Assembly: GCA_964354755.1 (NCBI GenBank) | Contig: CAYHBA010000001.1 | Coordinates: 224,009 to 288,008, forward strand | Direction of reading: 5' to 3' | Origin: an uncultured Thermoplasmata archaeon | GTDB lineage: Archaea; Thermoplasmatota; Thermoplasmata; SG8-5 | Length of the DNA stretch: 64,000 nt | Shown: piece by piece, positions 9,702 to 50,948 of the stretch | Layout of the letters: the number at the start of each line of letters is the position of its first letter | How positions within the stretch are numbered: position 1 is the first letter of the stretch | Position numbers and translations under genes: made by a program | The notes under the pieces: model-generated | What the model saw: only the letters and a program-made list of their open reading frames with translations | What the model was told of the DNA's origin: nothing | Database searches by the model: none

Positions 9702-11038
9702 CCGACTGGTGCTCACTGAAGCCTGCCGAGCTGCCCGAGGCCATCGTGAAAAAAGCCCTCAAGATGGGCGCGGACGATGTCATATGCACATCCGAGACAG
9801 GCGACACCAAGCAGATAAGGTTCGCAAACAACTCGGTGACTGCTTCGAAGTCATGGGCCAGCACTGAAATAAACATTTACATCACCAAGGATAAGCGCAT
9901 ACTGTCCACGGACATTACAATGCTTTCTGAGATCGACAGAGCCCTCGACGAGCTGGCCAAGAGAGTGAAACTCATGGAGCCGAACGACGAGTTCGGCGGA
10001 ATCGCCCAGGGCATCGGAAAGTACAGGAAGGACATGGCCGATGCGACAATCGCGACCATGGTCGAGGAACTGTACGACCATGTGGACGCTGCCATAGCCT
10101 CCGCCCAAGAGGAAGGCGCCAGCAGGGTCGCCGGTGTCCTGTACTCCAAAACGCAGCAAGTTCGCTTGGCCACGTCGGGCGGCGCGGTCGGCTCCTACGG
10201 CGACTCGGCCCTGGAGATATCGGTCCGGGCCATGTCGGACGCCCAGAGCTCGGGGCACATGGTCCAGTCCGTCACCAGCCCATGGAGGTTCGACCCGGAA
10301 AGGGTCGGCAGGGAGGCCGGGAGGCTTGCCAGGGAATCCAGGAACCCTGAAACAGGCGAAGAGGGCAAATTCGACGTTGTTTTCTCGCAGATGATATTCG
10401 CCAACATTCTCGAACATGTCGGCGCTTCCTGTTCGGCCGGGACGGTCGATGCGGGAATTTCATTCCTCAAGGATTGCCTGGGAAAGGGCGTGGCAAGCCC
10501 CGAATTCAATTGTTATGACGACGGGACCGATCCGGAATCGATACTGTCCCCGCCTTTCGACCAGGAGGGGGTGCCCACCCGCAGGACCTCGCTGTTCGAG
10601 AAGGGTGTGCTGAAGAACTACCTGCATAACACCAGCACGGCCAAGCGGTACAATACCGCGTCCACGGGGAATTCCGGGCTGGTTTTCCCCAATCCCTGGA
10701 CAGTGTGCATGGAGCCGGGCATGAAAACCAAGGACCAGCTGATATCGCAGGTCGACAGGGGGTACTACATGACCAACACATGGTACACGCGGTTCCAGAA
10801 CTACCAGACCGGGGATTTCTCCACGATACCGAGGGACGCCATCTTCCGCATCGAGAAGGGCAGGCTCGTGGGCCCTGTGAAAGACATCAGGATATCCGAG
10901 AACATGCTGAACATCCTGAAGAATGTCAGGGCCGTGGGAAACGACCCGATGCTGGTGCACTGGTGGGAGGTCGAGAGCCCCGTAATATGCCCGCATGTGC
11001 TGGTGGAGAAGGTAAATATTACGAAGAGCACGCAGTAG
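9698..11038 (+). CDS. pmbA: PmbA/TldE-family protein
   Basis: Paralogous to TldD and lacks the HExxxH motif. ATG at 9698 overlaps the tldD stop. The track ORF 9434.. is an out-of-gene extension. Confidence 0.8.
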   Translation: MTDWCSLKPAELPEAIVKKALKMGADDVICTSETGDTKQIRFANNSVTASKSWASTEINIYITKDKRILSTDITMLSEIDRALDELAKRVKLMEPNDEFGGIAQGIGKYRKDMADATIATMVEELYDHVDAAIASAQEEGASRVAGVLYSKTQQVRLATSGGAVGSYGDSALEISVRAMSDAQSSGHMVQSVTSPWRFDPERVGREAGRLARESRNPETGEEGKFDVVFSQMIFANILEHVGASCSAGTVDAGISFLKDCLGKGVASPEFNCYDDGTDPESILSPPFDQEGVPTRRTSLFEKGVLKNYLHNTSTAKRYNTASTGNSGLVFPNPWTVCMEPGMKTKDQLISQVDRGYYMTNTWYTRFQNYQTGDFSTIPRDAIFRIEKGRLVGPVKDIRISENMLNILKNVRAVGNDPMLVHWWEVESPVICPHVLVEKVNITKSTQ

Positions 11039-13477: not shown

Positions 13478-13763
13478 AGTATCGTTCGCTGAGTTCAGGA
13501 CGAGAAACGGTTTCAAGCAACCTATAGCATTTCTCGTCCGTGACTGCATCGAGCTTGCTCGATGCAATTGAGCTGGACTTCGCGAACTTCCGGATTCCTG
13601 CATCTATTCTTTCCAATTTGCTGTATCGTTCGCTGAGTCAGGACGAGAAACGGTCGTCAACAACCCTGAGCATTTCTCGTCCGTGACCGAGTCGAGCTTA
13701 CTCGACTCGATGTTGGCAAAGTCCTTCGTGAAAATCCGGATTCCTGCATCACATTCTTTTGGT
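13478..13763. repeat. Two tandem copies of a ~143-bp unit, each containing two hairpins
   Basis: Units at 13478-13620 and 13621-13763 share cgttcgctgag..caggacgagaaacgg...catttctcgtccgtgac...cggattcctgcatc. Each has a 10-bp stem (ggacgagaaa/tttctcgtcc) and a perfect 22-24-nt palindrome. The palindrome sequence differs between copies. Confidence 0.8.
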
Positions 13764-19916: not shown

Positions 19917-20215
19917 CCACCGAGGAAGAGATCAGAGAGCTGGAGAAGGTCCTGGCGGAGCTGAGGCGAAAGCCTTCTGACCGCCCGCAGGGAAACGCAA
20001 CTTCCTCGATTGATATCCTCCGATACCTTATCGGCCGGCCGGAGAAGCTCCGGGCAACGACCAAGATAATGAAGGCCTTCAACCTCTCTTACTCCATGTT
20101 CGTGGAGAGAATGTACATGTCCCTGGGCAAGGGCTGGATCGAGAAGGAGAGGAAAAACAACAGGGTGGTCTGGTCGGTCACGGAGGAGGGGAGGAAGATA
20201 TTGAGGGAGGAGTGA
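19913..20215 (+). CDS. Small winged-helix DNA-binding protein
   Basis: 100 aa with a wHTH-like IDILRYLIGRPEKLRATTKIMKAFNLSYSMFVERMYMSLGKGWIEKE segment. Confidence 0.4.
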   Translation: MTTEEEIRELEKVLAELRRKPSDRPQGNATSSIDILRYLIGRPEKLRATTKIMKAFNLSYSMFVERMYMSLGKGWIEKERKNNRVVWSVTEEGRKILREE

Positions 20216-22068
20216 AGTGGCAATCAATGCAACGGAGTTCCGACTTTTCGAATTATTTTATATATCCTCTGAATTATGCAGGTTCTATGAAAGCGGGAGC
20301 ATTTCCATTTAGTGTACTAAAAATGGAGGGGAGACTTACAATACCATTTTTCCAGCGAGGCTATATCTGGATAGAAGACAATTGGCAAGATTTACTCGAA
20401 GACATGGAAAGCGCAAACAAGAAACATTTCTGGGGATCATTAATTTTCAAACATGAAAAGGAAACAACCGGTGAACCAAAGAAAATTATCATCATCGACG
20501 GTCAACAAAGATTAACGACGATGAGTATAATGTTAAAGGCATTATACGATACATTCTCGCCGGGTATTAAGACAAGCACAAAATCAGTAGTAGAAGACTT
20601 GTTGTTATACAGGGTAAGTTCTACATCTCCAAAGTTTCAAGTCAGAATCCAACACTCACGTATTGACAGAAAATCCTATAAAAAGGTTATAACGTCTGGA
20701 TTAGGAGAAACAGAATTAACGGATGCTGAAATCAAAGATAATAATCCAATAATGAATTGCTACAGGTGGTATACTGAGAAACTTTCATCCAAAACCGAAA
20801 GTGCCCGGGAATTTATCTTCAACACCCTTACAAATATTGATAACAAAATGCTGGTCATCATCGACCTTGATGAAGATGATAATGAACAGACAATTTTTGA
20901 TACAATCAATACGGCAGGGGTAAGATTAACAAGTACTGACATTATAAAAAACAAACTCTTCCAAAAAGTCGTGGAATTATTCGATGAAGACCAGGCTATT
21001 GAGTATTATAAGAATACATGGGAGAATTGTTTTTTAAAGGATGAAGAAGCGAATGCTTATTGGCTTGGTGAGAGTTCAGAAGGAAGGATGACAAGGACCA
21101 ATAGCGATATTTTGCTCCATTCGGTAGCGGTTATCCAAGGATTTTACAATCCAGTGGATGATAAGCTCGGGGATTTACCCACCCGTTACAAGGAAAAAAT
21201 CGATGGATATGATTCATCAACCAAAGACAAACTCATTGAATTCATCAAAGAAATCAAAGCCTTTGCGACCATTTATAGGATGGATGTACCTGTATTCGAT
21301 AAAGACTTCCTATTGACATACACCAGGCAAGAGGAAAGATTGTTCCATATCCTCCATGAATTGAATATATCAACATTTCATCCTTACATACTATACATCC
21401 TGAAGAAATATCCCGCTGGGAGTGCGGAGAGAGCTAAAGGATTATACGACCTCGAAAAATTCGTCATGAGGAATATGATGGCGAAGAATCAAACAAGGAG
21501 CTATATCAATTATTGTAAAGAATTCATAGACGATCCATCTGAGATTATGAGGAAATATGCAAAGATAACTGATGCTGAAGTGGCTGCAGGTCTGAGGGAC
21601 ATCAGGACTAATGGAACCGCATCATTGATATTGTTCTGGATAGAGTTAAAACGGCTTGAAGACCCGCACGATGTCAAAGAGCTGCATTACCATTATTCCC
21701 TTGAACACATAATGCCTCAGAAGTGGGAGCCACATTGGACGGATCTTCCAACAACTCATACAGATGGCACGCCATTATCCGTTGACGAAATAGCTGAGGC
21801 CAAAGCTGAACGTTACAAACGCGTGTACTGGCTTGGCAATATGACTCTTCTCAGAACCAGGTTGAACTCTTCACTTAGGAATCATACCTATGAAAGAAAA
21901 ATGAATGGAGAGGGAAAGAAGAAAGGAATCAAGGATTATGCCTCTCTGACAATCACACGTGCAGACCTCGTAGAGCCTTTCCAAACGCTAGGGCAAACAA
22001 AATGGAATGAATCGAAGATAGAGGGACGAACTAGGAAACTTGAAGAGGAAATCAAGGCATTGTGGTAA
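20212..22068 (+). CDS. GmrSD-family type IV restriction endonuclease (DUF262 ParB-like NTPase + DUF1524 His-Me nuclease)
   Basis: Hallmark IIDGQQRLTT motif in the N-terminal domain. C-terminal HYHYSLEHIMPQKW matches the DUF1524 EHI.P nuclease motif. The gene is AT-rich. Confidence 0.8.
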   Translation: MKWQSMQRSSDFSNYFIYPLNYAGSMKAGAFPFSVLKMEGRLTIPFFQRGYIWIEDNWQDLLEDMESANKKHFWGSLIFKHEKETTGEPKKIIIIDGQQRLTTMSIMLKALYDTFSPGIKTSTKSVVEDLLLYRVSSTSPKFQVRIQHSRIDRKSYKKVITSGLGETELTDAEIKDNNPIMNCYRWYTEKLSSKTESAREFIFNTLTNIDNKMLVIIDLDEDDNEQTIFDTINTAGVRLTSTDIIKNKLFQKVVELFDEDQAIEYYKNTWENCFLKDEEANAYWLGESSEGRMTRTNSDILLHSVAVIQGFYNPVDDKLGDLPTRYKEKIDGYDSSTKDKLIEFIKEIKAFATIYRMDVPVFDKDFLLTYTRQEERLFHILHELNISTFHPYILYILKKYPAGSAERAKGLYDLEKFVMRNMMAKNQTRSYINYCKEFIDDPSEIMRKYAKITDAEVAAGLRDIRTNGTASLILFWIELKRLEDPHDVKELHYHYSLEHIMPQKWEPHWTDLPTTHTDGTPLSVDEIAEAKAERYKRVYWLGNMTLLRTRLNSSLRNHTYERKMNGEGKKKGIKDYASLTITRADLVEPFQTLGQTKWNESKIEGRTRKLEEEIKALW

Positions 22069-22091
22069 ACAAGAATGCAACCTAGCTGAAA

Positions 22092-22745
22092 TCACGAAAA
22101 TTTCGTCTCCATCATCCTATCGATTTCACCCTGCCCATATTTATTGATAACATAATCCATGTATTCTTCGATTCCCATCATTCTTGCGAGCTTATGTGAC
22201 CATCTTTTAAACTGTAGGTCTGAATAATAGAACATAGTATTCTTATCAAATGGCTCCACAATCCGGATTATGTATCCATCTTCGACAAATCCCACTCTAC
22301 GAATAGTCATCAACTCCCGAATTCGAACTCTCTTCCACCTGTCGGAATTATCAAAGTCGAGGACTATCTGCCCATTTATTAGTTCGAGGGGTATTTGGCG
22401 TGAGTTGGCAAGATTCTTGAAGTCGGAATCAATCTTCTCCATCAGTTTCTGAGTCATAACCCAGCATTTCTGATTGCCGTGGTATTTTCTTATCCATCTG
22501 ATTCGAGAGTTCATCAGGGCTTCGTATCTGATTTTAGGAATTTTTCCTATATTTTTACGAAGTGGAGCTGAGCCTGTTCTGTCTGTGATGTGGTTGGATA
22601 TAAAATCTCCATCATCCATTGTTATCAAATGAATGTCTCCCACACCCTCAAGGCAGAGTCCAAAAACCATTCCGTCCTTGGTTTGTCCATAAAACATAAT
22701 GCCTTTGTCCAGAGCAGTAATCTTAACGGTTTTCTTTTTCCCCAT
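22092..22745 (-). CDS. Hypothetical protein (AT-rich island)
   Basis: 217-aa ORF with no recognisable motif. Confidence 0.4.
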   Translation of the reverse strand: MGKKKTVKITALDKGIMFYGQTKDGMVFGLCLEGVGDIHLITMDDGDFISNHITDRTGSAPLRKNIGKIPKIRYEALMNSRIRWIRKYHGNQKCWVMTQKLMEKIDSDFKNLANSRQIPLELINGQIVLDFDNSDRWKRVRIRELMTIRRVGFVEDGYIIRIVEPFDKNTMFYYSDLQFKRWSHKLARMMGIEEYMDYVINKYGQGEIDRMMETKFS

Positions 22746-22805
22746 CTCAAGCCACGCTCACTTGACCGTTCATCAATCCTCGATGCCATTGCTGATAATT
22801 AAAGG

Positions 22806-23126
22806 TCACCCTTCAAAATAATTCCGTAATCTCTGCTCAATGACAGTGCAACCAAAATTGATAGGTTTATCAGTGATTTTCACAGTCACGATATTACCAG
22901 AGACACTATATGAACCAGATACCTTTCCTGAAAAACATCCACTCTGCGTATCCCCGCTAACTATTACACCGTTCCTCGCTGCTTCTTGTCTTACGTGTCC
23001 CAGAATTAAGTTTAAATCCATCCTGACTCGAATTGTAAATGTTGGACACCCGGACATAATAATAGTTAGGATTCCGGGCGATAAATAAATTGTGGTAAAA
23101 AAAAATAGGTCAGTGAGGGTTACCAA
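22806..23126 (-). CDS. Hypothetical protein
   Basis: 106-aa ORF. An alternative ORF exists on the opposite strand, so coding status is weak. Confidence 0.25.
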   Translation of the reverse strand: MVTLTDLFFFTTIYLSPGILTIIMSGCPTFTIRVRMDLNLILGHVRQEAARNGVIVSGDTQSGCFSGKVSGSYSVSGNIVTVKITDKPINFGCTVIEQRLRNYFEG

Positions 23127-23194
23127 TTAGACATCCAATTAACTTTTCTAATTGGACAGGAAAATATTTACAGTGTCAAGTCCATCCACGCCAT

Positions 23195-23548
23195 GTGAGA
23201 ATCAAGATATATGTCGGTACGGCCGCAGTGGGCGAAGGCGAACGGACGACCAGCACAGGCTACCATAGCACGCGTCTGACTTATTCCAAATTATATGACT
23301 GCCTCGATTCCACCGCCATGCATTCCGGGGATATGGAGGACGAATGCATCAAGACATTACATCTTGTAAGCCGGTTCGCAGAGGAGCATGGCCTGGAATT
23401 GAAGATGTACGATGTTTCGCACGATTATGCCGCTTTCAGGGCCTGGCTCGACAGAGTGAAATCCATACCCACCGTAATCATCGGAAAAAAGAAGTTCGAG
23501 GGTGTTCCGGAAATCGAGGAACTTGAAAAAGCCCTAAAAACCAATTAG
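23195..23548 (+). CDS. Thioredoxin/glutaredoxin-fold protein without a CxxC motif
   Basis: The C-terminal FRAWLDRVKSIPTVIIGKKKFEGVPEIEELEKAL is glutaredoxin-like. It is paralogous to 46247..46612 (FFKGVKILPTVIIGKHIL). The true start may be an internal ATG. Confidence 0.45.
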   Translation: MRIKIYVGTAAVGEGERTTSTGYHSTRLTYSKLYDCLDSTAMHSGDMEDECIKTLHLVSRFAEEHGLELKMYDVSHDYAAFRAWLDRVKSIPTVIIGKKKFEGVPEIEELEKALKTN

Positions 23549-23562
23549 AATTTATAAAAAAA

Positions 23563-23935
23563 GATAGGCAGGGATTTAGTCATTTCTGACATGGTTGGAG
23601 AGAGATTCCCTGCCCAAAGTGGGGAAGAGTTAAGCGTGATATTGCCCACATAAGCCTCAGCTTCCCGAAAAGGATAATAGTGCGGGGGGGATTTATAGAT
23701 ATAGATTGAAATTATGGAAATGAGAACCATAAATGAGATGAAATAACAAAACGGTAGAAAAAGAGAGGGCAGGGCATTTGGCCATTTCTGGCAATACATT
23801 GGGTAAAGACACCCTGCCCAAATTTTGGGGAAGAGTTGATCGTGAATATTCTGCCCACATAAATGCCTGCTTCCCGAAAAGGATAATAGGGCGGAGGGAT
23901 TTATAGGTTAGGGTTAGGTTGAAATTATGGTAGAA
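23563..23935. repeat. Duplicated ~160-bp structured leader
   Basis: Units at ~23563-23720 and ~23766-23935 share ggcaggg..catttctg.ca...ccctgcccaaa..tggggaagagtt...tgcccacataa...cttcccgaaaaggataatag..gg..gggatttatag...ttgaaattatgg. The second copy ends at the ATG of gene 23927. The first ends in a 9-codon mini-ORF. Confidence 0.75.
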
Positions 23936-24442
23936 GAAAAGGCAAAAGAGAAGAAAAAAGAAAATAATCCGGAGTTTGTTTTAACTGCCGCGACTATGAA
24001 TGCTATTGCGGATATAGTCAAATCACAAAAACGCACAGAAGATTTGGTTAGAGCTACAATGGCATCACAAAGTACATTGGCAACATTAAATCAAATCGCT
24101 CAAAATTCATTAGCAATACAGAGATTCATGGCCCCAACAATGAGCATCTTGGCCTCCCATTTAAATGAAAAAAAAGCAATGGAAAATTTACATCAACAAA
24201 TGCAATCTATAGCATGCTACGAAAAAACGTTATCTTCCCCCTCAATTGGATTAATAAAACCTGAAATGGCGATAATTGCCACAAATCAGCAAAAGATTGA
24301 TGAACGGTTGGATAGAATTGAAAAATTAGTAAAAAGAGTAATTCAATTACTTGGCGAAACCGAACTTTCTGAGGAACAAAAGAAACAACTCGAAAAATTA
24401 ATGAAAGAAATCAATGAAGAAACCGATAAAGCATACAGTTGA
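23927..24442 (+). CDS. Coiled-coil hypothetical protein
   Basis: 171 aa, K/E-rich with heptad character. Confidence 0.45.
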   Translation: MVEEKAKEKKKENNPEFVLTAATMNAIADIVKSQKRTEDLVRATMASQSTLATLNQIAQNSLAIQRFMAPTMSILASHLNEKKAMENLHQQMQSIACYEKTLSSPSIGLIKPEMAIIATNQQKIDERLDRIEKLVKRVIQLLGETELSEEQKKQLEKLMKEINEETDKAYS

Positions 24443-24942
24443 TTGGTAATTGAGGTGATGTTATTACTGGCAGACCAAGAAGACCAAGCCGAAAGGAAAT
24501 TGAAAAACAATCGGAAAAAGCCCGTAGAAGAGTTAAAACCGAACCAATAGAATAATGGAAATAAATAGCCATTATACTCTTAATCAGGCAACGGTTTCCT
24601 TTGTTGATAGTTGCATACGACTTTAGTAAGCAATGCAGGGAAAAGAAAGGCAAAATAAAAGCCGCCGCCCCTACCCTTTCAGCGTCATCCAGCGCAGTAT
24701 CAATAACGCCATTATTATCGCGTTCAGAAAAATTCCTGTGTTATAGCCAATACAAAAATTATAGACCATTCCGATCAAACAAATGAGAAGCCCGCTGCTC
24801 AGGATGGCTTTTATCACTCTTCCGTTCATCAATGCTCAATGCTATTGCTGATAGTTAAGGATTGGTAAAGAAAAGACTTGCCCGGAAGGGATAATTCGGA
24901 CCTAGGATCCAGAATGAAGGGGCGACTACGAAGTTTAGTGCA

Positions 24943-25293
24943 ATGACATTATGTAATAAACTGTTAAAGCATGTTAAATGTATGTTAATCATCTTTAAAT
25001 CGTATCATAACTATTTACAGTTAATGGACGAATCATTAGAAATAATCAACTGGTTGAAAAGTGGAAAATATAGAGTTCCAATGCTAAACGAATTACTATC
25101 TCCTAAATCGCCATCTGAACTTGCTGGCATTCTAAATATAAATCGTGCCTCTGTTAGTAGGATAATAAAGGATCTAACTAGTAAAAAATTGATAGATTGC
25201 ACTGAATCTGGTGCCAAAACAAAGTTATGTATTATTAATGAAAAAGGCAAACACATAATAAAACTCTTTTATGATATCGTGGGTGGTGGATGA
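24943..25293 (+). CDS. Winged-HTH transcriptional regulator, possible restriction-modification controller
   Basis: SPSELAGILNINRASVSRIIKDLTSKKLID is HTH-like. It lies immediately upstream of, and overlaps, the putative endonuclease gene. Confidence 0.45.
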   Translation: MTLCNKLLKHVKCMLIIFKSYHNYLQLMDESLEIINWLKSGKYRVPMLNELLSPKSPSELAGILNINRASVSRIIKDLTSKKLIDCTESGAKTKLCIINEKGKHIIKLFYDIVGGG

Positions 25294-26050
25294 TATAAAT
25301 ATTTCATTTCTTAAAAAGGCAATGGTGAATAGACGGGTACCAAAACCCGCTTCAGGCACGTTGTCTGGACACGCTGCTGGAGAACCCTTTGATAAACTTG
25401 TTTATCAATTAATTAAAGAAAAATATCCTAATAAAACTTTTAGGCAATATGAATACTTAAATAAATTATACCTTGATCATCCCAAGGTAACAACTTACAA
25501 AGATAGGTATAGTTTAATTTCATCTCCTGCATTGAGACTTTTATTAAATCGAGGCGTTGGTGTCACTAAAAAATGGACCTCTACTAATCAACTGAAAGAA
25601 AAGCAAGATGATACAGCTGATACATTATTGATTTCTGGAAATTTCCATCATATTATTGATGTAAAAACACGAAATATAGACAAAAAGGCACTTGCACCAA
25701 ATATTATTTCTGCTAAAAAGTTAGCAGAGATGTCTTTAATAATGATTAAAGAAACGGATTTTGATAGTTTTAAAATAACATACGTAGGTGTCGATTGGGC
25801 CCTTGAGGGGGCTTATTTAGTTTGTAGTAAAACAACAATGAAAGATATATTTCAGGCAACTCCCTCTTCCTTGTATATAAATTGGTCTGCAGCCAATCAA
25901 ATCCAGTTCCATGTTGAAAAACTTGACCAAAGTTATAAAAAAGGAATTAAGACTTGGTGTAAAGAATATCTCGCTCATTATGTCGAATCTGCAAATCATC
26001 GAATGAAACACTTTCGTAAGAAATTTATTAAACCATTCGATATCGATTAG
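25271..26050 (+). CDS. Putative type II restriction endonuclease (PD-(D/E)xK candidate)
   Basis: ADTLLISGNFHHIIDVKTR has PD...(D/E)xK spacing. The gene is convergent with and abuts the methyltransferase gene. Confidence 0.45.
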   Translation: MISWVVDDINISFLKKAMVNRRVPKPASGTLSGHAAGEPFDKLVYQLIKEKYPNKTFRQYEYLNKLYLDHPKVTTYKDRYSLISSPALRLLLNRGVGVTKKWTSTNQLKEKQDDTADTLLISGNFHHIIDVKTRNIDKKALAPNIISAKKLAEMSLIMIKETDFDSFKITYVGVDWALEGAYLVCSKTTMKDIFQATPSSLYINWSAANQIQFHVEKLDQSYKKGIKTWCKEYLAHYVESANHRMKHFRKKFIKPFDID

Positions 26051-27835
26051 TTAATAAATCATGGAATCTAAAATTTTATCGATATCTTCCTTTCCTTTAC
26101 TTGATTGTGTTTTAATTATGTGGTCTACTATCTTCACGATTTTATTATGTATGGCAACTTCATTATCATTTGACCAGTCGATTAATCTTATGGGTATTTT
26201 TGAAAGTGGTTTTTCAGAAAATTCAAGTACGCCACCTCTTGCTAAGCCTTGATATTTTAACCAAGTTAATATGGTGTTTGAATTTAGTTGGGCTAGAATG
26301 AATCGAATATCCTCCTTTACCCATTGTTTTAAAACGATACCAGTTACATCTTGTGTCGGATAAAATTGCCCCTGGATATATGAAAAACGAGCATAATTTC
26401 TCTTATCAATTCGTTCTTTACATGGACAGAATATTTTAGAATCGTTTGTATGAAACAATTCCCAATTTCTTAAGAACACCCATTGCCACCAGGGAATATT
26501 ACGATTATAGGAATATCTGGCATTTAATTTTTCTTTGTGTTTTAATAGTTGATTATATACATGTGGCATCTTCTCTTTTAATTCCCTCTCTGAATGAAGA
26601 TTGTTAAGGAAGATATAGGGGGTATATCCAGTAGCCCAATATTGTTTAAGATCATACGCTTTTATTACGTTGATAATGTATGATTTTTCTGTCTTATTAA
26701 GTGTGTTCAAATCTGAGAGTTGGAATGCTCGGTCCAATCCGCTTACAAGACCATTTCCTATTTCTGCAATATCTCCGAGTCTAATATTTCTCTCAAGATT
26801 GAAATCCTCATTTATCTTTAAGGTTGGATTAGAGAGTGTATAGTATTTCGTTCCAGTAAAATTAATTTCGGAACATATATTTTTAGGGATATCCAATTCC
26901 TCTAAATCGTCTTTCGTGAAAAGTTTAGCTAAGCTATAATAATCTGTTTTTCCATTTAATGTACATTTTACTTTAGGAGAATATATGTGTTTTGTTTGTT
27001 TCAAAACAGAAATTATTGCTTCATATTGTGGTGGAATAATGTTCCAGGGCTGTCCGTTATGAAATTGATGGTGAAGGTATGCTTCATAAATATCTTCGTT
27101 CAGATAAGGATTTCTACTTGATAATTTATTGAGTATTACTGAAATTTCCTCTAGATGGGTAGCTGTTAATCGTTTCTTACTATTTACATTTACAACGAGG
27201 ATGGGCATATTTTGTTTTTTGATACTTTTAATGAATTTAAAGATAATGATCGAGGAGGACACATTATCAAATATCCTCATTTCATTAAAATTAATTATGT
27301 GTGTGATAGTTCCATTTTCTGTGAGAAAACGTCGTAATTTGCTGGCATGAAGGGTTTTTAACCAAAATCCCGGAGTAATAAAAATTAATTCTCCGTTTTC
27401 TTTTAATGCGTCTACAGATGAATAAATAAAGGGATATAGTAAATCTGCCAGGCTGTTCAATCGTTCTTTCCAGATTTCATTTTCTGTTAAATATTGTTGA
27501 AAATCTTTAGGCATGTTTTTCCATCTTACATATGGAGGATTCCCAATTACTAAATCGTAATGATTTTGTAATTCGAGCTTTAAGAAATCTGTATATTTCA
27601 TTTCTATCTTGGATTTATTGTCTAATGTATTATCAATTTCAAATGCATCGATATTATGGTAACCTAATTGTGATAAAATTTCAAGAAAGACTCCTTCGCC
27701 TGCTGATGGCTCACAAATTAGTTGTTTTTCCTTTATTGATGAAAGAGACACCATGAACTTGACAACAATTTCTGGGGTGAATATTTGTCCATACTGTTTT
27801 TCTTTTTCAACCATGATTACCACATCAATTAACAT
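26051..27835 (-). CDS. Type II N6-adenine DNA methyltransferase (gamma class, TaqI-like) with C-terminal target-recognition domain
   Basis: Motif X IFTPEIVVKFMV, motif I CEPSAGEGVFL and motif IV VIGNPPYV, in that order. Confidence 0.8.
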   Translation of the reverse strand: MLIDVVIMVEKEKQYGQIFTPEIVVKFMVSLSSIKEKQLICEPSAGEGVFLEILSQLGYHNIDAFEIDNTLDNKSKIEMKYTDFLKLELQNHYDLVIGNPPYVRWKNMPKDFQQYLTENEIWKERLNSLADLLYPFIYSSVDALKENGELIFITPGFWLKTLHASKLRRFLTENGTITHIINFNEMRIFDNVSSSIIIFKFIKSIKKQNMPILVVNVNSKKRLTATHLEEISVILNKLSSRNPYLNEDIYEAYLHHQFHNGQPWNIIPPQYEAIISVLKQTKHIYSPKVKCTLNGKTDYYSLAKLFTKDDLEELDIPKNICSEINFTGTKYYTLSNPTLKINEDFNLERNIRLGDIAEIGNGLVSGLDRAFQLSDLNTLNKTEKSYIINVIKAYDLKQYWATGYTPYIFLNNLHSERELKEKMPHVYNQLLKHKEKLNARYSYNRNIPWWQWVFLRNWELFHTNDSKIFCPCKERIDKRNYARFSYIQGQFYPTQDVTGIVLKQWVKEDIRFILAQLNSNTILTWLKYQGLARGGVLEFSEKPLSKIPIRLIDWSNDNEVAIHNKIVKIVDHIIKTQSSKGKEDIDKILDSMIY

Positions 27836-43101: not shown

Positions 43102-44748
43102 TTATTTCGACTCTTTTCCCATGAACGGATACTTGTAATCCGTAGGTGGCAGCAGGTTCTCCTTGATTGTTCTTGGGCTGACCCAGCTCAGGAGATTGAG
43201 GTATGAGCCTGACTTGTCGTTTGTTCCGGAGCACCTCGCGCCTCCGAACGGCTGCTGGCCCACGACTGCGCCCGTGCATTTGTCGTTTATGTAGAAGTTG
43301 CCAGCCGCGTTCCGCAGTATCTCTGAAGCTTTTACAATGGCATTTCTGTCCTTCGCGAATATCGCTCCTGTAAGAGCATAAGGCGATGTCTGGTCGCAGA
43401 GCCGGAGCGTCTCTTCGTACATCTTGTCCTTGTAGACATAAATCGTCAGTACGGGACCAAATATCTCCTCCTCCATGGTCTTGAAGTGCGGGTCCAGAGC
43501 CTGTATGAGGGTCGGCTCGATGAAGTATCCCTTGGATGAATCGGCCTTTCCGCCAAATATTATCTTTGCGTCCTTGGACTGACGCGCTATTTCAATGTAC
43601 CCAGAAATAGTCTCGAATGCCGATTTGTCTATGACCGCATTCACAAAATTACCAAAGTCCTGGACATCGCCGGTTTTAATCTCCTTAAGCATCTGGATGC
43701 ATTTCGCTTTAACGGGCTCCCAGAGGGATTCAGGGATGTAAGCCCTGGATGCGGCAGAGCATTTCTGGCCCTGGTACTCGAATGCGCCCCGGACCAGTGC
43801 CGTGGCGACTGAATCAGCCTCGGCCGAAGGGTGTACGAAGATGAAATCCTTGCCGCCGGTCTCGCCCACCAGCTTCGGATAGGATGAATACACACTTAGA
43901 TTCTCTCCGAGCGTTCTCCAGAGCTTGCTGAAGACTGCTGTCGAGCCAGTGAAATGAATACCAGCTAACCTTCGATCGTTCAGTGCGATGTTTCCAACAA
44001 CCTCGCCGGAGCCGGGGACGAAGTTTATCACGCCGTCCGGAAAACCCGCTTCCTTGAATATCTCCATTAGGAAATAGTTTGAGAGGAGCGATGTCGTCGC
44101 TGGCTTCCAGAGCACGACATTGCCCATTATCGCCGGAGCGGTCGGAAGATTTGCTCCAATGGCGGTGAAATTGAACGGAGTAACCGCGAAAACGAAACCC
44201 TCCAGTGGTCGGTATTCAACTCGGTTAAGCGTTCCGAGCGAGGCTTCCGGCTGGTCTGCGTAAATCTTCTGGAGATAATAGGCATTGAATCTAAGAAAAT
44301 CTATTGTCTCGCATGCTGCGTCAATCTCTGCCTGGAAAGCGTTCTTGCTTTGACCAAGCATGGTCGCGGCATTGATGAGGAACCGGTGTTTCTTGGAAAT
44401 CAATTCAGCGGCCTTGAGCGCTATTGTCCCGCGTTCCTCCCAGGGAAGGGCTTCCCAGTCGGATTTTGCCGCGATTGCGCAGTCTATCGCTTCCTTGACC
44501 AGTTCAGGTGTCACTTTGTGATATTCGGCAAGTATGTGTTTATGGTCATGGGGCATGACGACTTTGCCCTTGTCGCCTGTCGGAACCTTTCTCCCGCCGA
44601 TGACTGGCATGATTTCTATCTTGCTGTTCTCTATATCTCTCATTGCCTGGATGATGGCTTTTCGCTCCGGACTTCCGGGGGCGTAGTTGAGAACTGGTTC
44701 GTTCGCTGGCCTGGGTATGTTGATGATTGATTCATTCATAATAAACAC
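43102..44748 (-). CDS. 1-pyrroline-5-carboxylate dehydrogenase (aldehyde dehydrogenase superfamily, RocA/PruA-like)
   Basis: The N-terminal NEPVLNYAPGSPERKAI motif is typical of the P5CDH subgroup. ALDH catalytic Cys/Glu regions are present. GC is visibly lower than in host genes. Confidence 0.75.
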   Translation of the reverse strand: MFIMNESIINIPRPANEPVLNYAPGSPERKAIIQAMRDIENSKIEIMPVIGGRKVPTGDKGKVVMPHDHKHILAEYHKVTPELVKEAIDCAIAAKSDWEALPWEERGTIALKAAELISKKHRFLINAATMLGQSKNAFQAEIDAACETIDFLRFNAYYLQKIYADQPEASLGTLNRVEYRPLEGFVFAVTPFNFTAIGANLPTAPAIMGNVVLWKPATTSLLSNYFLMEIFKEAGFPDGVINFVPGSGEVVGNIALNDRRLAGIHFTGSTAVFSKLWRTLGENLSVYSSYPKLVGETGGKDFIFVHPSAEADSVATALVRGAFEYQGQKCSAASRAYIPESLWEPVKAKCIQMLKEIKTGDVQDFGNFVNAVIDKSAFETISGYIEIARQSKDAKIIFGGKADSSKGYFIEPTLIQALDPHFKTMEEEIFGPVLTIYVYKDKMYEETLRLCDQTSPYALTGAIFAKDRNAIVKASEILRNAAGNFYINDKCTGAVVGQQPFGGARCSGTNDKSGSYLNLLSWVSPRTIKENLLPPTDYKYPFMGKESK

Positions 44749-44989
44749 CGTTATTCTGGGCCAAGTATATCGGCTATATTAATGTGATGTTGAACCAATT
44801 TCAATACGTTGAATGATGTGATTTTTCACGACCTTGGGATGCAAAAGCGTATAATTATAATGTTTCAATTATATATTCGAGCCAGCCATCTATGATTCAA
44901 ACTTCGTCTGATGCAACAACGGACGGCAGAAGGCACATACAACGGAACCGCTGGCCCTCCCCCCACCCGCACCGCGCTGGAACCCCTTT

Positions 44990-45335
44990 TCCTATCATTC
45001 CAGTCTTTCGTTCATGCCTGCTTCCGGTCTGGCCACCTTTTCTCCCGTGAATCCGGTGAGAAAAGTTGTCTCAAACAAACATCGGCACCTGTGCCTCGGG
45101 TGTAAAGGAAGCAGAGGCGAGCATGAACGACCAGCCAGTTTGGCTTGGATATTCCCGCGAATATCGGGAATGGAAAGCCTGGAACGAGTCGGTGAAGGAG
45201 CTGGTTTGAATGGCTATGGAATCGATTAGCTGTGATGGCATGCCAGAGGTCTTTCCGGGGGATTTCCCCCGGAAGCCACCACAGCCTTTCCATAATCCAT
45301 TCAACACGCAAGCCAGCTTCGAGGTGATTCAATGA
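44990..45335. repeat. Repeat R1, copy a (copy b at ~46728-47060): structured leader plus two conserved tiny ORFs
   Basis: The first ~230 bp are near-identical between copies (ccagtctttcgttcatgc...ggaagcagaggcgagcatgaacgacc...gagctggtttgaatggc). The second small ORF and the rest of the unit diverge, as detailed in the R1 finding. Confidence 0.85.
45123..45209 (+). CDS. Candidate 28-aa Trp-rich peptide (MNDQPVWLGYSREYREWKAWNESVKELV)
   Basis: Conserved in copy b (MNDRPIWLSYSREYREWKAWNESVKELV) with two synonymous and three conservative changes. Preceded by two hairpins and GGAAGCAGAGG. Its stop is immediately followed by the ATG of a second small ORF (45210-45335). Confidence 0.35.
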   Translation: MNDQPVWLGYSREYREWKAWNESVKELV

Positions 45336-45604
45336 GGGCATCGTCGCCGCACTGGCTTCGGGTGCTTCAATATCTGAATCACTTCAATCCAGACGACCTG
45401 GATTTCGTGGCACCCTTCGACATAACGCAGAACGGGATCGCCGATGCCCTCGGAATCACCCGGCCGCATGCGAGCCTCGTGTTAAAGAAACTCATCACGG
45501 ATGGTTTCGTGGAGCGAAAGATGCTCCATATCAGAGGAGGCCGCAGACGAAGGCTGGCTTACATTATCAGCCCCTCTGGGATTCAGGTGGTGAGAGCTTG
45601 CTAG
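45332..45604 (+). CDS. Winged-HTH transcriptional regulator
   Basis: 90 aa. ADALGITRPHASLVLKKLITDGFVERK is an HTH plus wing. Its ATG overlaps the stop of the upstream tiny ORF (ATGA). Confidence 0.5.
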   Translation: MRASSPHWLRVLQYLNHFNPDDLDFVAPFDITQNGIADALGITRPHASLVLKKLITDGFVERKMLHIRGGRRRRLAYIISPSGIQVVRAC

Positions 45605-45939
45605 GCCAAGTGACGCTCGGCCAGCTCGCAGATGTTACGCGGGGGAATCGTGACATCTCCCTGCAAGTCGATGATATCCTGATCCGGCGGGTGTCCGGCT
45701 CCATAGAGAAACTTGGCGAACCTGTGATAATTGGCGACAGTCGGACACCCTGGCCGGGGAATCCGGACACCTTCATTCATATTCGAGTGTCCAGGAGAGA
45801 TGTACTATTCCCCCGCTATCTGTACTATCTTCTCCAGCACCTGAACCAGAGCGGCCAGTTCCAGCGCATCGCGCAGGGTTCGGTCCAGCAGTTCATCCGC
45901 GTCCGTGACGTCGAGGCGATCGGGCTGAGGCCGGGGTGA
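45598..45939 (+). pseudogene. Fragment of a type I restriction-modification specificity subunit (HsdS half)
   Basis: VTLGQLADVTRGN...DILIRRVSG...LFPRYLYYLLQHLNQSGQFQRIAQGSVQQFIRVRDVEAIGL matches the HsdS target-recognition-domain pattern. No hsdM or hsdR nearby. A shorter copy of the 3' end occurs at ~47170-47255. Confidence 0.6.
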
Positions 45940-46190
45940 CGGCGCCCGACTGCTCGGGCGGCACCAATAAGCGCTGGCTTTGCTGCCAGAGACGAACGCA
46001 AAGCCAGGCGATTAAAGGTGCCGCCCTCGCACGACGATGGTCGTGCGCGCGTTGTTAACATACTCCTTACATACGATATGCAATTATATAGCTACAAGCC
46101 TCGTCTGTAAGGACGGGGTTATGTTAACTAATACTAACGGATATAAACTATATATACCTGTTATCGGATAATGGGAACACGTGACTTGGC
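45846..46190. repeat. Repeat R2, copy a (copy b at ~47170-47530): HsdS 3' fragment, hairpin element, inverted-repeat module and promoter
   Basis: Long direct repeat. It contains a nested hairpin (45955-46027), a 75-bp element with GTTAACAT/ATGTTAAC termini (46054-46128), a TATA-like box (aaactatatatacc) and a conserved leader (ggataatgggaacacgtgacttg). Each copy precedes a different gene. Confidence 0.85.
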
Positions 46191-46246
46191 GTAGCGGAGG
46201 AGTGCCCGGTTAGGAACGTGAATTTGGGGATGGCCAGTTAGGTGAA

Positions 46247-46612
46247 GTGATGATAATTGAACTCTACCTAGACTCAGATAAAGGCGCTGTGAAAGGTGAA
46301 GGTACTGGAAACCTTCCATGGTCTATGAGAGCGGGTTGGACACCAACAAAGGATTCTTCACTTAATGTTAAGATGGCATTCGTCAATTTTACCGATGAAG
46401 AAAATGAATTGAGGACTCGACTTGACCGAATTGCTACCGAACACAATCTCGAAATAATTCTATATGACACAGCGCGGACTCGGTATGCAATGCGAGCTTT
46501 TTTCAAAGGAGTGAAGATATTGCCAACCGTAATTATTGGTAAACATATACTGACTGGCAAAATTACTGAAGCTCAGATAATCAAAGTAATAAATGAGCAA
46601 TCTAATGTTTGA
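46247..46612 (+). CDS. Thioredoxin/glutaredoxin-fold protein without CxxC, paralog of 23195..23548
   Basis: HNLEIILYD...MRAFFKGVKILPTVIIGKHILTGKITEAQI aligns with the 23195 product. AT-rich and driven by the R2 promoter. Confidence 0.5.
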   Translation: MMIIELYLDSDKGAVKGEGTGNLPWSMRAGWTPTKDSSLNVKMAFVNFTDEENELRTRLDRIATEHNLEIILYDTARTRYAMRAFFKGVKILPTVIIGKHILTGKITEAQIIKVINEQSNV

Positions 46613-47548
46613 AAATAGATACAAAAAGTAGGCTGCAACATCCGCCTTTTGCTATACTTAACAACCATACTTAACATCACCGCTAGCCCGCCCCCTCCTC
46701 CGCCCTGCACTGGCCCTCCTCTACCCCCAGTCTTTCGTTCATGCCCTGCTTCCGTCCAGCCACCCTTTCTCCCGTGAATCCGGTGAGAAAAGTTGTCTCA
46801 AACAAACATCGGCACCTGTGCCTCGGGTGTAAAGGAAGCAGAGGCGAGCATGAACGACCGGCCAATTTGGCTTAGCTATTCCCGCGAGTATCGGGAATGG
46901 AAAGCCTGGAACGAGTCGGTAAAGGAGCTGGTTTGAATGGCAATGGAACCAGTCGACTCCCTTGATTGTGATTGGCCGGGGAGTGTTCCCTGGCCATTCC
47001 CGCCTGAAAAGGCGGTCTCCTCTGGGGGGCGGGCGCGGTATTGCCTAACGTGAGTCTGGCGCGCCCACGCGCCAGTGTTGTACCGAGCGAGCAGGTGAGG
47101 GCGAGTTTTCTTGTTTACTGAATATTTTTCTTTTGGAGCCCGAGCAAGCGCAGCGAGGTCAAAAGAAAAATACTCGCGGCCAGTTCCAGCGCATCGCCCA
47201 GGGGTCGGTCCAGCGATTTATTCGGGTTCGGGATGTCGAGGCGATCGGGCTGATTCTGGCTTGACATCCAGCTACACTCGGGCGGTGCCAATAAACGCTG
47301 GCTTAGCTGCTAGAGACGAACGCAAAGCCAGGCGATTAAAGGCACCGCCCTCGCACGCCAGGCAAGGCTGGTCGCGCGTGCGCATTGTTAACATACTCCT
47401 TACATACGATATGCAATTATATAGCTACAAGCCTCGTCTGTAAGGACGGGGTTATGTTAACTGATATTAACTGATATTAACTGATATAACCTATATATAT
47501 CTGATATCGGATAATGGGAACACGTGACTTGCGAGGGAGTGAATAGCT

Positions 47549-48478
47549 TTGAAGGAGATGGGCCTGACTGGCATCGATATTAGAAACTATGATAAAACGA
47601 TAGATATCGACAATTTTGTCCGGTTTTACAATCATGCTCATTCGGATTATCCATCACATAATACTCTAACTGCTGACATCGCGCAGCAATATATTTTTGG
47701 AAAACCAGGGTATGATTCTCAATCACATTTTCTAGCAATCAAGGATTCAGAGATCATCGGAAGTGTCAAAGGGGAGATATTTGCTGGAAAAAGAGGAATT
47801 ATTGGAATGATAATTAGTCCAGAACACCGTATGCTTGGGATTGAAGATGTCCTTTACAAGCTGGTTATGAATTACTATCGTCAGAAAGGATTGGATGAAG
47901 CCGGAGTCCATGTTGATTCGTCATTTCCAAAAATGATTGATTTCTACAAGTCACATGGATTTACCATTTGGAAAATATCATACCAGATGTCATGTAAATT
48001 AAAGCAATCTATGAAAACTAGTTCTAAAATGGCAGCAGGTTATCATATTGGACCATCCAATCAAAATGAGATTGATAAGGTAAGGAATGTCTTAGCAATT
48101 GGTTTTGAAAATGAGCATGTAGAGGAAATAATTGGTGAATTTGACCGACTTCTCCAAGAAAAGGGTTTTGATATAAGTGGAATAATTGTGGCAAGGAAAA
48201 GCAACGATGTCATTGGACTGATATTTAATTTCATCCATCCAGCGATGCCGGATAGAGGATTTGTTACATGGATTGCTGTGATTCCATCAGAGAGAAACAA
48301 GGGTGTGGGAAAATCCCTATTATCATCGGGATTGTCTTGGATGAAAGAGAAAGGCGCTTTGACTGTGGAATTGAATGTCGATTTAAAGAATCCCAGCGCA
48401 TTAAAATTATATCAAGACTGTGGGTTTGAAGTAGTATCTGAAACTAATATTATGCAAAAGGCCCATCTCCGTTTGTAA
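47549..48478 (+). CDS. GNAT-family N-acetyltransferase (two GNAT-like halves)
   Basis: Acetyl-CoA-binding-like motifs (KRGIIGMIISPEHRMLGIED and RGFVTWIAVIPSERNKGVGKSLL). AT-rich and driven by the R2 copy b promoter. Confidence 0.65.
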   Translation: MKEMGLTGIDIRNYDKTIDIDNFVRFYNHAHSDYPSHNTLTADIAQQYIFGKPGYDSQSHFLAIKDSEIIGSVKGEIFAGKRGIIGMIISPEHRMLGIEDVLYKLVMNYYRQKGLDEAGVHVDSSFPKMIDFYKSHGFTIWKISYQMSCKLKQSMKTSSKMAAGYHIGPSNQNEIDKVRNVLAIGFENEHVEEIIGEFDRLLQEKGFDISGIIVARKSNDVIGLIFNFIHPAMPDRGFVTWIAVIPSERNKGVGKSLLSSGLSWMKEKGALTVELNVDLKNPSALKLYQDCGFEVVSETNIMQKAHLRL

Positions 48479-48524: not shown

Positions 48525-48730
48525 CCGCGTGGATGCCTCGCCGGAGGATTGCGTCCTTGCACTGCCGCTCATCGAGCAATCCGCACGGATGCGAGCCACC
48601 GTTTTCCCAACGTTACGGCGAAGCAGCCACGAGTACAACGAAGGGACGGGGAGTGTGAACGAAAGGCTTATTATCTGCCTTTCGCATTCACTTGGGGCAA
48701 GTGGCTACTGGCTAAGGCTGTGTGCCCGTT
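48525..48730. repeat. Repeats R_A/R_B, copy 1 (further copies at ~49500-49670 and ~50620-50800)
   Basis: R_A (gaatgcctcgccggag...caagccacc...ttacggcgaagcagc.acgagtacaacg.agg..gggag) and R_B (acgaaag.cttatta...gcattcacttgg...ctgtgccc) recur around the nucleotidyltransferase and membrane-protein genes. The last copy ends in a long palindrome (ggggcggggagcgggtttaatgca...tgcattaaacccgcacaccgcccc). Confidence 0.8.
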
Positions 48731-50614: not shown

Positions 50615-50948
50615 AGAGTATACGAGAGAACCGCTTGAATGCCTCGCCGGAGCTTTGTATCCTGGTAGCGACGAGATTCGCCAACAAAGCGTACGGTTGC
50701 AAGCCACCATATTCCTGATGTTACGGCGAAGCAGCTACGAGTACAACGCAGGGGCGGGGAGCGGGTTTAATGCACAATGCGAATTGGGGTTGCATTAAAC
50801 CCGCACACCGCCCCGACCCTTCATTCAACGTGAAGACACCTTGAAGCTAATTGCTTCTACATCTTTTCAGGTAACGCCTCAATATTCCACGAGTATTCCT
50901 CAGGGATGCAGCGCCCATGGGGGCCTGTGGCTTGTCCTTGTTGAGTGA

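Follow-up and report, generated by a model that had tools for sequence, protein, structure and literature searches.

In a stretch of 64,000 nucleotides (nt) of DNA from an uncultured Thermoplasmata archaeon (assembly GCA_964354755.1, contig CAYHBA010000001.1, positions 224,009 to 288,008; referred to below as the window) we found a conserved leader with covarying RNA folds at the head of a series of abutting small genes in the accessory DNA of a provirus. The best reading of this element is that of an undescribed structured cis-regulatory translational leader with coupled small open reading frames (ORFs) in an archaeal provirus island. On balance we consider it probable that a structured 5' domain of the messenger RNA (mRNA) gates a first small gene (sORF1) and then, via start/stop coupling, a second one (sORF2), a MarR-like regulator and a fragment (ORF113) that resembles the S subunit of type I restriction systems. 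An earlier reading of the same letters (hereafter the original prediction) had proposed a structured leader followed by two tiny coupled ORFs and a winged helix-turn-helix (wHTH) gene; the feature turned out to be real and conserved, and its interpretation to be partly right. The elements of the leader, all on the plus strand, are the following:

44950-46190, plus strand: the leader module of about 1.2 kb, a repeat unit that includes the leader, the small ORFs, the regulator, ORF113 and the hairpin D7
44950-45036, plus strand: the presumed 5' untranslated region (UTR), the C/T-rich 5' part of the module, with TCGTTCATGC-CTGCTTCC at 45008-45025
45037-45065, plus strand: hairpin 1 (CTTTTCTC-CCG ... 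CGG-T-GAGAAAAG; -13.5 kcal/mol)
45066-45209, plus strand: sORF1 as redefined here, with a TTG start and 47 amino acids (aa; MSQTNIGTCASGVKEAEASMNDQPVWLGYSREYREWKAWNESVKELV), of which the 28-aa ORF described earlier is probably the C-terminal part
45084-45119, plus strand: an H-type pseudoknot in codons 7-18, with the conserved purine loop AAGGAAGCA between its stems
45084-45089 with 45099-45104, plus strand: pseudoknot stem 1 (core GCACC/GGUGU, 45085-45089 with 45099-45103)
45092-45097 with 45114-45119, plus strand: pseudoknot stem 2 (UGCCUC in the loop of stem 1 with GAGGCG downstream)
45107-45117, plus strand: the GGAAGCAGAGG purine box, read in the sequence

The leader pattern is matched twice in the window, where none is expected by chance, and it recurs in independent metagenome and genome contigs of Thermoplasmatota/Methanomassiliicoccales. 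Two types of copies could be distinguished: the Trp-type, with eight copies (both window copies, a and b, and L017, L021, L002b, L025, L029 and L030), and the zinc-ribbon type, with at least seven (L002a, L024, L022, L010, L014, L016 and L031) plus 16 protein clusters, in which one ORF of 72 aa takes the place of sORF1 and sORF2 and ends in the same ATGA overlap. A pattern scan of metagenomes yielded one true copy (L017) and three chance matches that were discarded (L018-L020), and L001, a Logan contig that is 100% identical to the window and breaks at the repeat boundaries, adds no divergence. Sequencing run ERR3804374 contains a contig with 100% identity. The conserved block, as delimited with nhmmer, begins at 44957 in copy a and at 46691 in copy b.

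Hairpin 1 formed in per-sequence folds of 14 of 14 copies, at -7 to -15 kcal/mol and always with GGUGAG inside; in the window this motif (GGTGAG, 45055-45060) lies in the 3' arm and is the Shine-Dalgarno sequence of the first ORF. The inner pairs of the hairpin differ by lineage (CCG/CGG, CCAA/UUGG, CCGG/CCGG, CCAG/CUGG and CAGG/CCUG). Per-sequence folds were used for this element because MAFFT could not place its shifting bulge and loop for the counting of column pairs. Two hairpins had originally been proposed here; hairpin 1 is the one that stands, and the pairing of the other (GGCA/TGCC, 45084-45095) is lost in relatives.

Stem 2 of the pseudoknot was first flagged by RNAalifold. Two covarying helices in H-type topology, the generic mark of such a fold, were found: among seven distinct sequences 94% of the cells are paired and six of the 12 pairs show compensatory changes on both sides, compared with 36-46% pairing and 0-2 compensatory pairs in controls in which the partner was slid by at least one position, and none of 500 shuffles attained the observed covariation score. 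Stem 1 reads GACACC/GGUGUC, GAUGUC/GGCAUC or CGCUG/CAGCG in other lineages. A further predicted element is a long-range duplex, in which the C/U-rich strand UCGUUCAUGC-CUGCUUCC (45008-45025) is complementary to 45107-45114 and 45121-45130, with -18 to -36 kcal/mol in 12 copies (window minimum free energy, RNAduplex) and one compensatory change in L021 (G>U / C>A); the duplex is strong in most copies, and it is possible that it closes the leader domain. Over the whole window no Rfam 15 family matched at gathering thresholds, and at E <= 10 over 44900-47600 only two chance-level matches to unrelated families appeared, none of them for the leader or for D7; a tRNA scan of the window found none. 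Programmed frameshifting at the pseudoknot was considered and rejected on inspection, as no lineage has a slippery heptamer upstream.

The distribution of variation shows where the constraint lies. In seven Trp-type copies only 7% of the columns are variable in the segment that begins with the start codon and ends with the pseudoknot, compared with 41% in hairpin 1, 39% in the C-terminal part of sORF1, 59% in the 5' UTR and 77% in sORF2 (first 63 nt). At the same time the residues encoded by the pseudoknot vary by lineage (TCASGV, AETSSA, VRAPGI) and the base pairs are retained. Because of this low variability, and because amino acids change while pairs stay, the strong nucleotide conservation of the leader is, as far as the sequences tell, conservation at the RNA level and not at the peptide level. 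In the C-terminal part of sORF1 the ratio of non-synonymous to synonymous variation (pN/pS) is mostly 0.25-0.7, the variable sites are spread evenly over the codon positions (9/8/10), and some paired non-synonymous changes keep an RNA helix, which points to only moderate purifying selection and a weak signal at the level of the peptide. The idea that the peptides themselves are what is selected could not be upheld, in contrast to the more general claim of a selected region ahead of a winged-helix regulator, which the data support. As an observation that would speak for conservation of nucleotides rather than peptides, the original prediction had named copies with disrupted ORFs and conserved nucleotides. 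This was seen only in part: the TTG frame was never found broken, but the ATG of the 28-aa ORF was lost once and sORF2 was remodelled repeatedly.

A further finding was that the leader does not lie upstream of the coding region, as had been thought, but overlaps some 19 codons of it, since the frame of the ATG at 45123, from which the 28-codon ORF (stop 45207-45209) had been read, is already opened by a conserved TTG (45066) that has a Shine-Dalgarno sequence of its own. This TTG lies 57 nt upstream of the ATG and is common to all copies, except that L031 has an ATG instead, at the same distance of seven codons from the ACC-TGT-GCC of the pseudoknot. GGTGAG precedes it by about 6 nt, a proper spacing, in all copies, and an earlier start is impossible in most of them because the TGA inside GGTGAG is in frame, two codons upstream of the TTG. 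The TTG frame is free of stops in nine of nine distinct leaders (the other frames have stops in 5/9 and 3/9), no copy breaks it, sORF1 is intact in every copy found, all indels in the leader are multiples of 3 nt, zinc-ribbon homologues share the N-terminus of sORF1, and gene calls of the Joint Genome Institute (JGI) start at the TTG. Since start codon, frame and indels are conserved in this way, relatives without a start at the position of the ATG exist and the JGI calls agree, we take sORF1 to be the 47-aa gene at 45066-45209, with the 28-aa ORF probably its C-terminal part. Peptides that would be distinctive of the TTG form are SQTNIGTCASGVK and EAEASMNDQPVWLGYSR; the N-terminal stretch of the ATG form is MNDQPVWLGYSR, and a peptide of sORF2 is MAMESISCDGMPEVFPGDFPR.

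The alternative is that the 28-aa peptide starting at ATG 45123 is the real product in the Trp-type, that the TTG frame is accidental and that the pseudoknot is a switch that sequesters a Shine-Dalgarno sequence, its GAGGCG strand holding the ribosome-binding site. Such a start is plausible as an internal one: GAGG (45114-45117), in the 3' strand of stem 2, lies a few nucleotides 5' of the ATG, which is present in seven of the eight Trp-type copies, four zinc-ribbon proteins (P0026, P0017, P0018 and P0022) have M or V at the equivalent position, and the first 19 residues of sORF1 are not conserved as protein between lineages. We nevertheless regard this alternative as unlikely, given that most zinc-ribbon relatives have TCG, AAG or ACG at this position and hence no start codon, and still keep the leader, and given the open frame, the in-frame indels, the ATG of L031 and the well-placed GGTGAG described above. 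In L002b the ATG is replaced by ACG, but since the closely related L029 and L030 retain the ATG, this is one recent change and therefore weak evidence against an ATG start.

Downstream of the pseudoknot the following elements were found:

45129-45206, plus strand: a large hairpin in the C-terminal part of sORF1, predicted by RNAalifold on seven copies, 24 pairs
45129-45136 with 45198-45206, plus strand: the outer helix of this hairpin, covering AAGGAG (45195-45200), the Shine-Dalgarno sequence of sORF2
45149-45157 with 45165-45173, plus strand: the core of this hairpin, with invariant AUUCCCG...CGGGAAU
45210-45335, plus strand: sORF2, 41 aa, rich in Pro and aromatic residues, directly after the sORF1 stop
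45332-45604, plus strand: the winged-helix regulator, a minimal MarR-like protein of 90 aa, with Shine-Dalgarno sequence GAGGTGAT at 45322-45329
45598-45939, plus strand: ORF113, the S-subunit-like fragment and last gene of the long module, the TTG start of which overlaps the stop of the wHTH gene
45953-46033, plus strand, and again at 47277-47357: D7, a conserved hairpin of 81 nt that closes the module

The ORFs are arranged for translational coupling, as was originally described, and all junctions are present. The stop of sORF1 runs into the start of sORF2 in TGAATG (45207-45212), with the second ATG at 45210 opening a 41-codon ORF (stop 45333-45335), and this junction is retained in eight of eight Trp-type copies; the stop of sORF2 overlaps the ATG (45332) of the 90-aa winged-helix gene in ATGA (45332-45335); and each ORF of the module has its own Shine-Dalgarno sequence. 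In the hairpin within sORF1 the core stem shows no synonymous variation at all, and in its extension two columns are compensatory through non-synonymous changes in both partners (L/F with A/T). Over the Shine-Dalgarno sequence of sORF2 the outer helix is mostly kept in the seven copies and shows no compensatory change. This predicted helix fits translational coupling, of which it would be a classic layout. Read-through of the TGA between sORF1 and sORF2, which are in the same frame, was not adopted as an explanation, as the frame in which the regulator stands relative to them varies from copy to copy.

sORF2 is the most variable segment of the module, even though a MAMEP..CD..FP..FP pattern and in-frame indels characterise it in eight copies. 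In L017 it is fused in frame to a full regulator; L025 and L002b/L029/L030 retain a remnant of the C-terminus of the regulator, to which sORF2 is joined. The natural fusion of sORF2 and winged helix in L017 (2267-2632, 121 aa) suggests, on sequence grounds, that the sORF2 peptide may act with the regulator or as its extension.

The regulator matched the Pfam family MarR_2 (PF12802) with 31.9 bits at a cutoff of 27, and HTH_Crp_2 also matched. Its AlphaFold model (predicted local distance difference test score, pLDDT, 84.7) consists of a helix at 7-17, the helix-turn-helix, the wing and one short C-terminal helix, and its best matches in the PDB were MepR of S. aureus (3eco and 4l9j being closest) and other proteins of the MarR family, to which all of the top 24 belong. 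The template modelling (TM) score was about 0.7 over 82-85 residues, and only 0.43-0.50 when normalised to the target. With its 90 aa the regulator differs from canonical MarR proteins (about 140 aa) in that it is without the long N- and C-terminal dimerisation helices. Marginal matches were also found to a PHROG 'O-like' family (E = 0.0067) and to HigA (E = 0.034). Homologues of the regulator form nine clusters with 63-91% identity, the matches in the genome collection being Methanomassiliicoccales archaeon UBA280 and another metagenome-assembled genome (MAG) of Methanobacteriota, and a further relative occurs in a Thermoplasmatota MAG. The stop of the regulator (45602-45604) is TAG here and in L017 and CAG in L002b, where the frame runs on for three codons until a TGA. 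Since UAG can be read as pyrrolysine in Methanomassiliicoccales, an extension of the regulator by three residues is conceivable.

ORF113 matched 17 of the PADLOC Specificity_I models (best E = 6.5e-5) and, weakly, MAD5 S, and is conserved in L001, L017 and L002b/L029/L030. No significant similarity was seen between ORF113 and the neighbouring HsdS of L003, and its relation to the type I S subunit is a matter of profile matches only. As a stand-alone S fragment encoded together with a provirus regulator, ORF113 could serve as a decoy or modify specificity.

In the reading that we favour, 44950-46033 would be one transcription-and-translation unit of the accessory island of a provirus in the Thermoplasmatota / Methanomassiliicoccales lineage. 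Hairpin 1 would bury GGUGAG, translation would start at UUG 45066 and codons 7-18 would form the pseudoknot, with the long-range helix with the C/U-rich 5' UTR possibly closing the domain. Translation of sORF1 would melt the helix over the Shine-Dalgarno sequence of sORF2 at the TGAATG junction, the stop of sORF2 would be coupled to the start of the MarR-like regulator in the ATGA overlap and the stop of the regulator to the TTG of the S-subunit-like fragment, and the conserved D7 hairpin would end the unit. The leader RNA would act as the gate that sets the output of the entire cascade, candidate openers being a protein of the operon, temperature, a ligand or a host factor, and the regulator would control the cargo genes of the island.

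Several points weigh against this reading, besides the plausible internal start at ATG 45123 and the slight weight of the ACG in L002b. The number of distinct pseudoknot sequences is only seven, and eight of eight Trp-type copies are identical there. The long-range helix is made up mostly of invariant bases and in some lineages rivals stem 2. An archaeal promoter could not be located with confidence; TATA-like AT-rich stretches occur 25-40 nt 5' of the block in some copies only. The translation of the small ORFs, the 5' end of the transcript and the regulatory effect of the folds are predictions from the sequence. Finally, some copies of the leader (copy b, L025, L002b and L031) have no regulator behind them, so that the gating of a regulator cannot be the only role of the leader. 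A more far-reaching version, which we put forward tentatively and would not expect to hold in full, is that the leader represents a new class of archaeal cis-regulatory RNA, composed of hairpin 1, the in-ORF pseudoknot with the invariant AAGGAAGCA loop and the long-range closing helix, that senses a small molecule, a host factor or one of the proteins encoded by its own operon; that sensing switches on the coupled micro-genes and a MarR-like regulator controlling defence/accessory cargo in Methanomassiliicoccales-like proviruses; and that the small protein has an exchangeable C-terminal module on a fixed RNA platform, either a zinc ribbon or a Trp-rich helix together with a Pro-rich peptide.

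The second copy in the window (copy b, module 46690-47540) is without the regulator. Its elements are the following:

46691-47053, plus strand: leader, sORF1b (TTG form 46793-46936, ATG form from 46850) and sORF2b (46937-47053)
47176-47357, plus strand: the 3' part, with a remnant of the C-terminus of ORF113 (47176-47265) and the D7 hairpin (47277-47357)

Copy a and copy b are 94.6% identical at the 5' end (45000-45221 versus 46727-46948) and 84% identical at the 3' end (45851-46199 versus 47176-47539), and between these, 227 nt take the place of 629 nt of copy a that hold the remainder of sORF2, the regulator and the larger part of the 113-aa ORF; copy b lacks the wHTH gene and the N-terminal part of ORF113. 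What had been said of this copy was confirmed: both small ORFs are intact (46850-46936 and 46937-47053), no regulator follows, and the 28-aa form differs by exactly the reported three amino-acid changes (Q4R, V6I and G9S) and two synonymous ones. The repeat itself, called R1 in the original prediction, thus has a real second copy; its extent had to be revised, since the true unit is the module of about 1.2 kb. Two inverted repeats occur within the 227-nt replacement (47054-47175): CTGGCGCG-CCCA-CGCGCCAG, which makes a perfect hairpin, and CTTTTG...CAAAAG. A 109-aa ORF on the minus strand across the region (45012-45341) was rejected as a gene, as it is broken in copy b.

D7 folds at -43.9 kcal/mol (z = -5.8), and its 16 variants share 19 pairs, six of them with compensatory changes. 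Its outer and inner stems, the latter with a bulged G, are separated by a conserved internal loop (AAUAWAC / GAWUAAA), and its terminal loop varies. Further examples were found in L014 (1955-2034 and 2715-2794) and in L002 (6322-6400 and 10404-10480), and because those of L014 flank a single gene without any leader, D7 must be considered a separate element, which from its predicted fold may be a terminator, an insulator or a recombination site. Complementarity between the loop of D7 and the leader was rejected on inspection, being imperfect (10/12) and not maintained in L002. After each module follow an AT-rich stretch and then a different low-GC gene: 46247-46612 (function unassigned) after module a and a double GNAT gene (47549-48478) after module b. 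Just 5' of both cargo genes lies a repeat (46042-46190 and 47375-47531) with an inverted repeat GTTAACAT...ATGTTAAC and a TATATATA box; it is probably the promoter region of the cargo, with AT-rich putative promoters at 46100-46190 and 47440-47530, and is not conserved in relatives at other loci.

This arrangement raises the question whether leader and D7 are DNA-level boundaries or recombination sites of a cassette-like module that shuffles cargo between related proviruses, with the small ORFs incidental. The tandem modules with different low-GC cargo after each D7 would fit, as would the two modules per island that L002 and L029 also have, the independent internal deletions that spare leader and D7, the lone D7 pair around a single gene in L014, and a tyrosine recombinase 7 kb downstream. 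We consider this explanation improbable, for the pseudoknot covaries in both stems, as expected of a single-strand fold and not of a site in duplex DNA, each of the ORFs is preceded by a Shine-Dalgarno sequence of its own, indels stay in frame, starts overlap stops, the homology between copies runs through the ORFs, and the module is not bracketed by target-site duplications or terminal inverted repeats. D7 was also rejected on inspection as an integron attC site, because its ends (CTCGGGCG... and ...CGCCCTCG) are without the RYYYAAC / GTTRRRY (AAC / GTT) cores, and an attC-type array would be broken as well, the cargo gene 46247-46612 being followed by a leader copy and not by D7.

That the small ORFs form a toxin-antitoxin-like pair or are precursors of ribosomally synthesised and post-translationally modified peptides (RiPPs), both of which had been put forward earlier, is very unlikely. 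They are indeed short coupled ORFs on a mobile element, and sORF2 is rich in Pro, Cys and Trp. However, neither sORF1 nor sORF2 matched any model in Pfam, NCBIfam, PHROG or PADLOC, including those for toxins, antitoxins and defence, a hydrophobic or toxin-like segment is absent, and sORF2, which evolves faster than any other segment, has undergone fusion or truncation in half of the copies. Maturation enzymes are not conserved beside the module, the neighbours being different at every locus (GNAT and nucleotidyltransferase genes here; unknown genes, HEPN, restriction-modification genes and heliorhodopsin elsewhere). The suggestion that sORF1 is a leader peptide for attenuation of downstream genes, which had been made because of its Trp codons, hardly deserves credit: sORF1 does have three invariant Trp in 28 codons, hairpins nearby and a place upstream of other genes, like trpL and tnaC, but its Trp codons (codons 7, 17 and 20 in the numbering of the 28-aa form, which are 26, 36 and 39 in that of the 47-aa form) are never adjacent, no plus-strand terminator-like hairpin with a T-run lies between sORF1 and the regulator or anywhere in 44750-47600, no antiterminator or trp genes accompany it, the downstream genes being those for a MarR-like regulator and a piece of an S subunit, a zinc ribbon stands in place of the Trp pattern in homologous leaders, and the conserved structures lie 5' of and around the start codon, not between a leader peptide and the next gene.

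Several known systems resemble the module in part. In IncI-alpha / IncB plasmids a pseudoknot forms next to the ribosome-binding site of the initiator gene and is blocked by a cis-encoded antisense RNA, and this switch of leader peptide and pseudoknot (repY-repZ) would be the closest working analogue. Common to both are a mobile element, a structured leader RNA with stem-loops, a pseudoknot in the switch (as proposed here), and a tiny leader ORF with a stop that abuts or overlaps the next start (TGAATG and ATGA in our case). A downstream ribosome-binding site in a helix that translation of the leader opens is a mark of the plasmid switch; here such a helix is a prediction, mostly kept in seven copies and free of compensatory changes. 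The control of these plasmids (ColIb-P9 repY-repZ and pMU720 repB-repA) is the subject of work that is cited in PMC4288162 (J Biol Chem 273:11815; EMBO J 17:5201; Asano & Mizobuchi 1998). The archaeal module differs in that its pseudoknot is located inside the first ORF, about 200 nt from the start and ribosome-binding site of the wHTH gene, that no antisense RNA is evident by a promoter scan that was sigma-70 based and does not cover archaeal promoters, that the downstream gene encodes a MarR-like regulator and not a replication initiator, and that the module is an archaeal cascade of three to four ORFs with zero sequence similarity to the plasmids.

Autogenous operators with a pseudoknot are known from E. 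coli rpsO/S15, the alpha operon/S4 and phage T4 gene 32. There, as here, the pseudoknot is at or just after the initiation region, the ribosome-binding region is in structure, and genes for nucleic-acid-binding proteins that could feed back follow; the pseudoknot described here starts about 19 nt past the start codon instead of spanning it, and there is no homology. With the preQ1-II, SAM-II, SAM-V and guanidine-III riboswitches the leader shares a compact H-type pseudoknot with a purine-rich third loop and, in the Trp-type copies, a 3' strand with GAGG just 5' of an AUG. It differs from them in that none of their Rfam models matched even at E = 10, most lineages are without a start codon after the pseudoknot, and the downstream genes are not metabolic or transport genes. 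Covariation-backed structured cis-regulatory mRNA leaders are, to our knowledge, rare in Archaea, and we know of none for archaeal viruses or proviruses. The leader would offer a compact model for archaeal ribosomes that meet a sequestered Shine-Dalgarno sequence and a pseudoknot just past the start codon, and the module one for translational coupling across ORFs of 30-90 codons and for the regulation of accessory/defence islands in archaeal proviruses. It also calls for caution in the annotation of small ORFs, as what looked like a conserved leader plus a tiny peptide is probably a longer TTG-initiated gene, the first 19 codons of which are constrained as RNA and not as protein.

Judged by gene content, the setting of the module is a mobile-element accessory or defence island of a tailed provirus. 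The window carries provirus genes for portal, HK97-like capsid, tail tube and integrase, as well as GmrSD and HincII restriction-modification genes, and relatives of the module are neighboured by terminase, HEPN, GIY-YIG, GmrSD, MmeI-type and Methylase_S genes. A blastn search of plasmids with the module gave no match, nor did viral contigs by DNA pattern or regulator profile. Just before the portal gene lies a low-GC island (20212-27835, 31-43% compared with about 56% in the flanks) with GmrSD, a HincII endonuclease and an Eco57I / N6-type methylase, which is a defence island inside the provirus. The zinc-ribbon-type copy of L031 (5970-6219), which is divergent and has the leader fold and the ATG start, adjoins integrase and MC6 / CTD10 / DUF2326 genes and has neither regulator nor D7, and because this copy stands alone, the leader plus small gene can be seen as the core unit. 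In L002 (Methanomassiliicoccales UBA280) long GC-rich stretches without ORFs flank the second module (8660-9100 and 10480-10900) and may be structured non-coding RNA or decayed genes.

We also observed several features elsewhere in the window. D8 is a direct repeat of 77 nt with 83% identity (48577-48653 and 50685-50761), located in intergenic DNA after the GNAT gene and after a 299-aa ORF, for which an RNA-structure signal was not seen (z near 0). On the minus strand, an ORF of 783 aa (1890-4241) is composed of periodic repeats of 69 nt (23 aa; families D1-D3), and short direct-repeat pairs, D10 and D11, occur in intergenic DNA (13495-13705 and 23643-23898). Between the tail-side genes and the module, in provirus-like accessory DNA, a minus-strand ORF of 548 aa (43102-44748) is aldehyde-dehydrogenase-like and, judged from the sequence by eye, resembles 1-pyrroline-5-carboxylate dehydrogenase.

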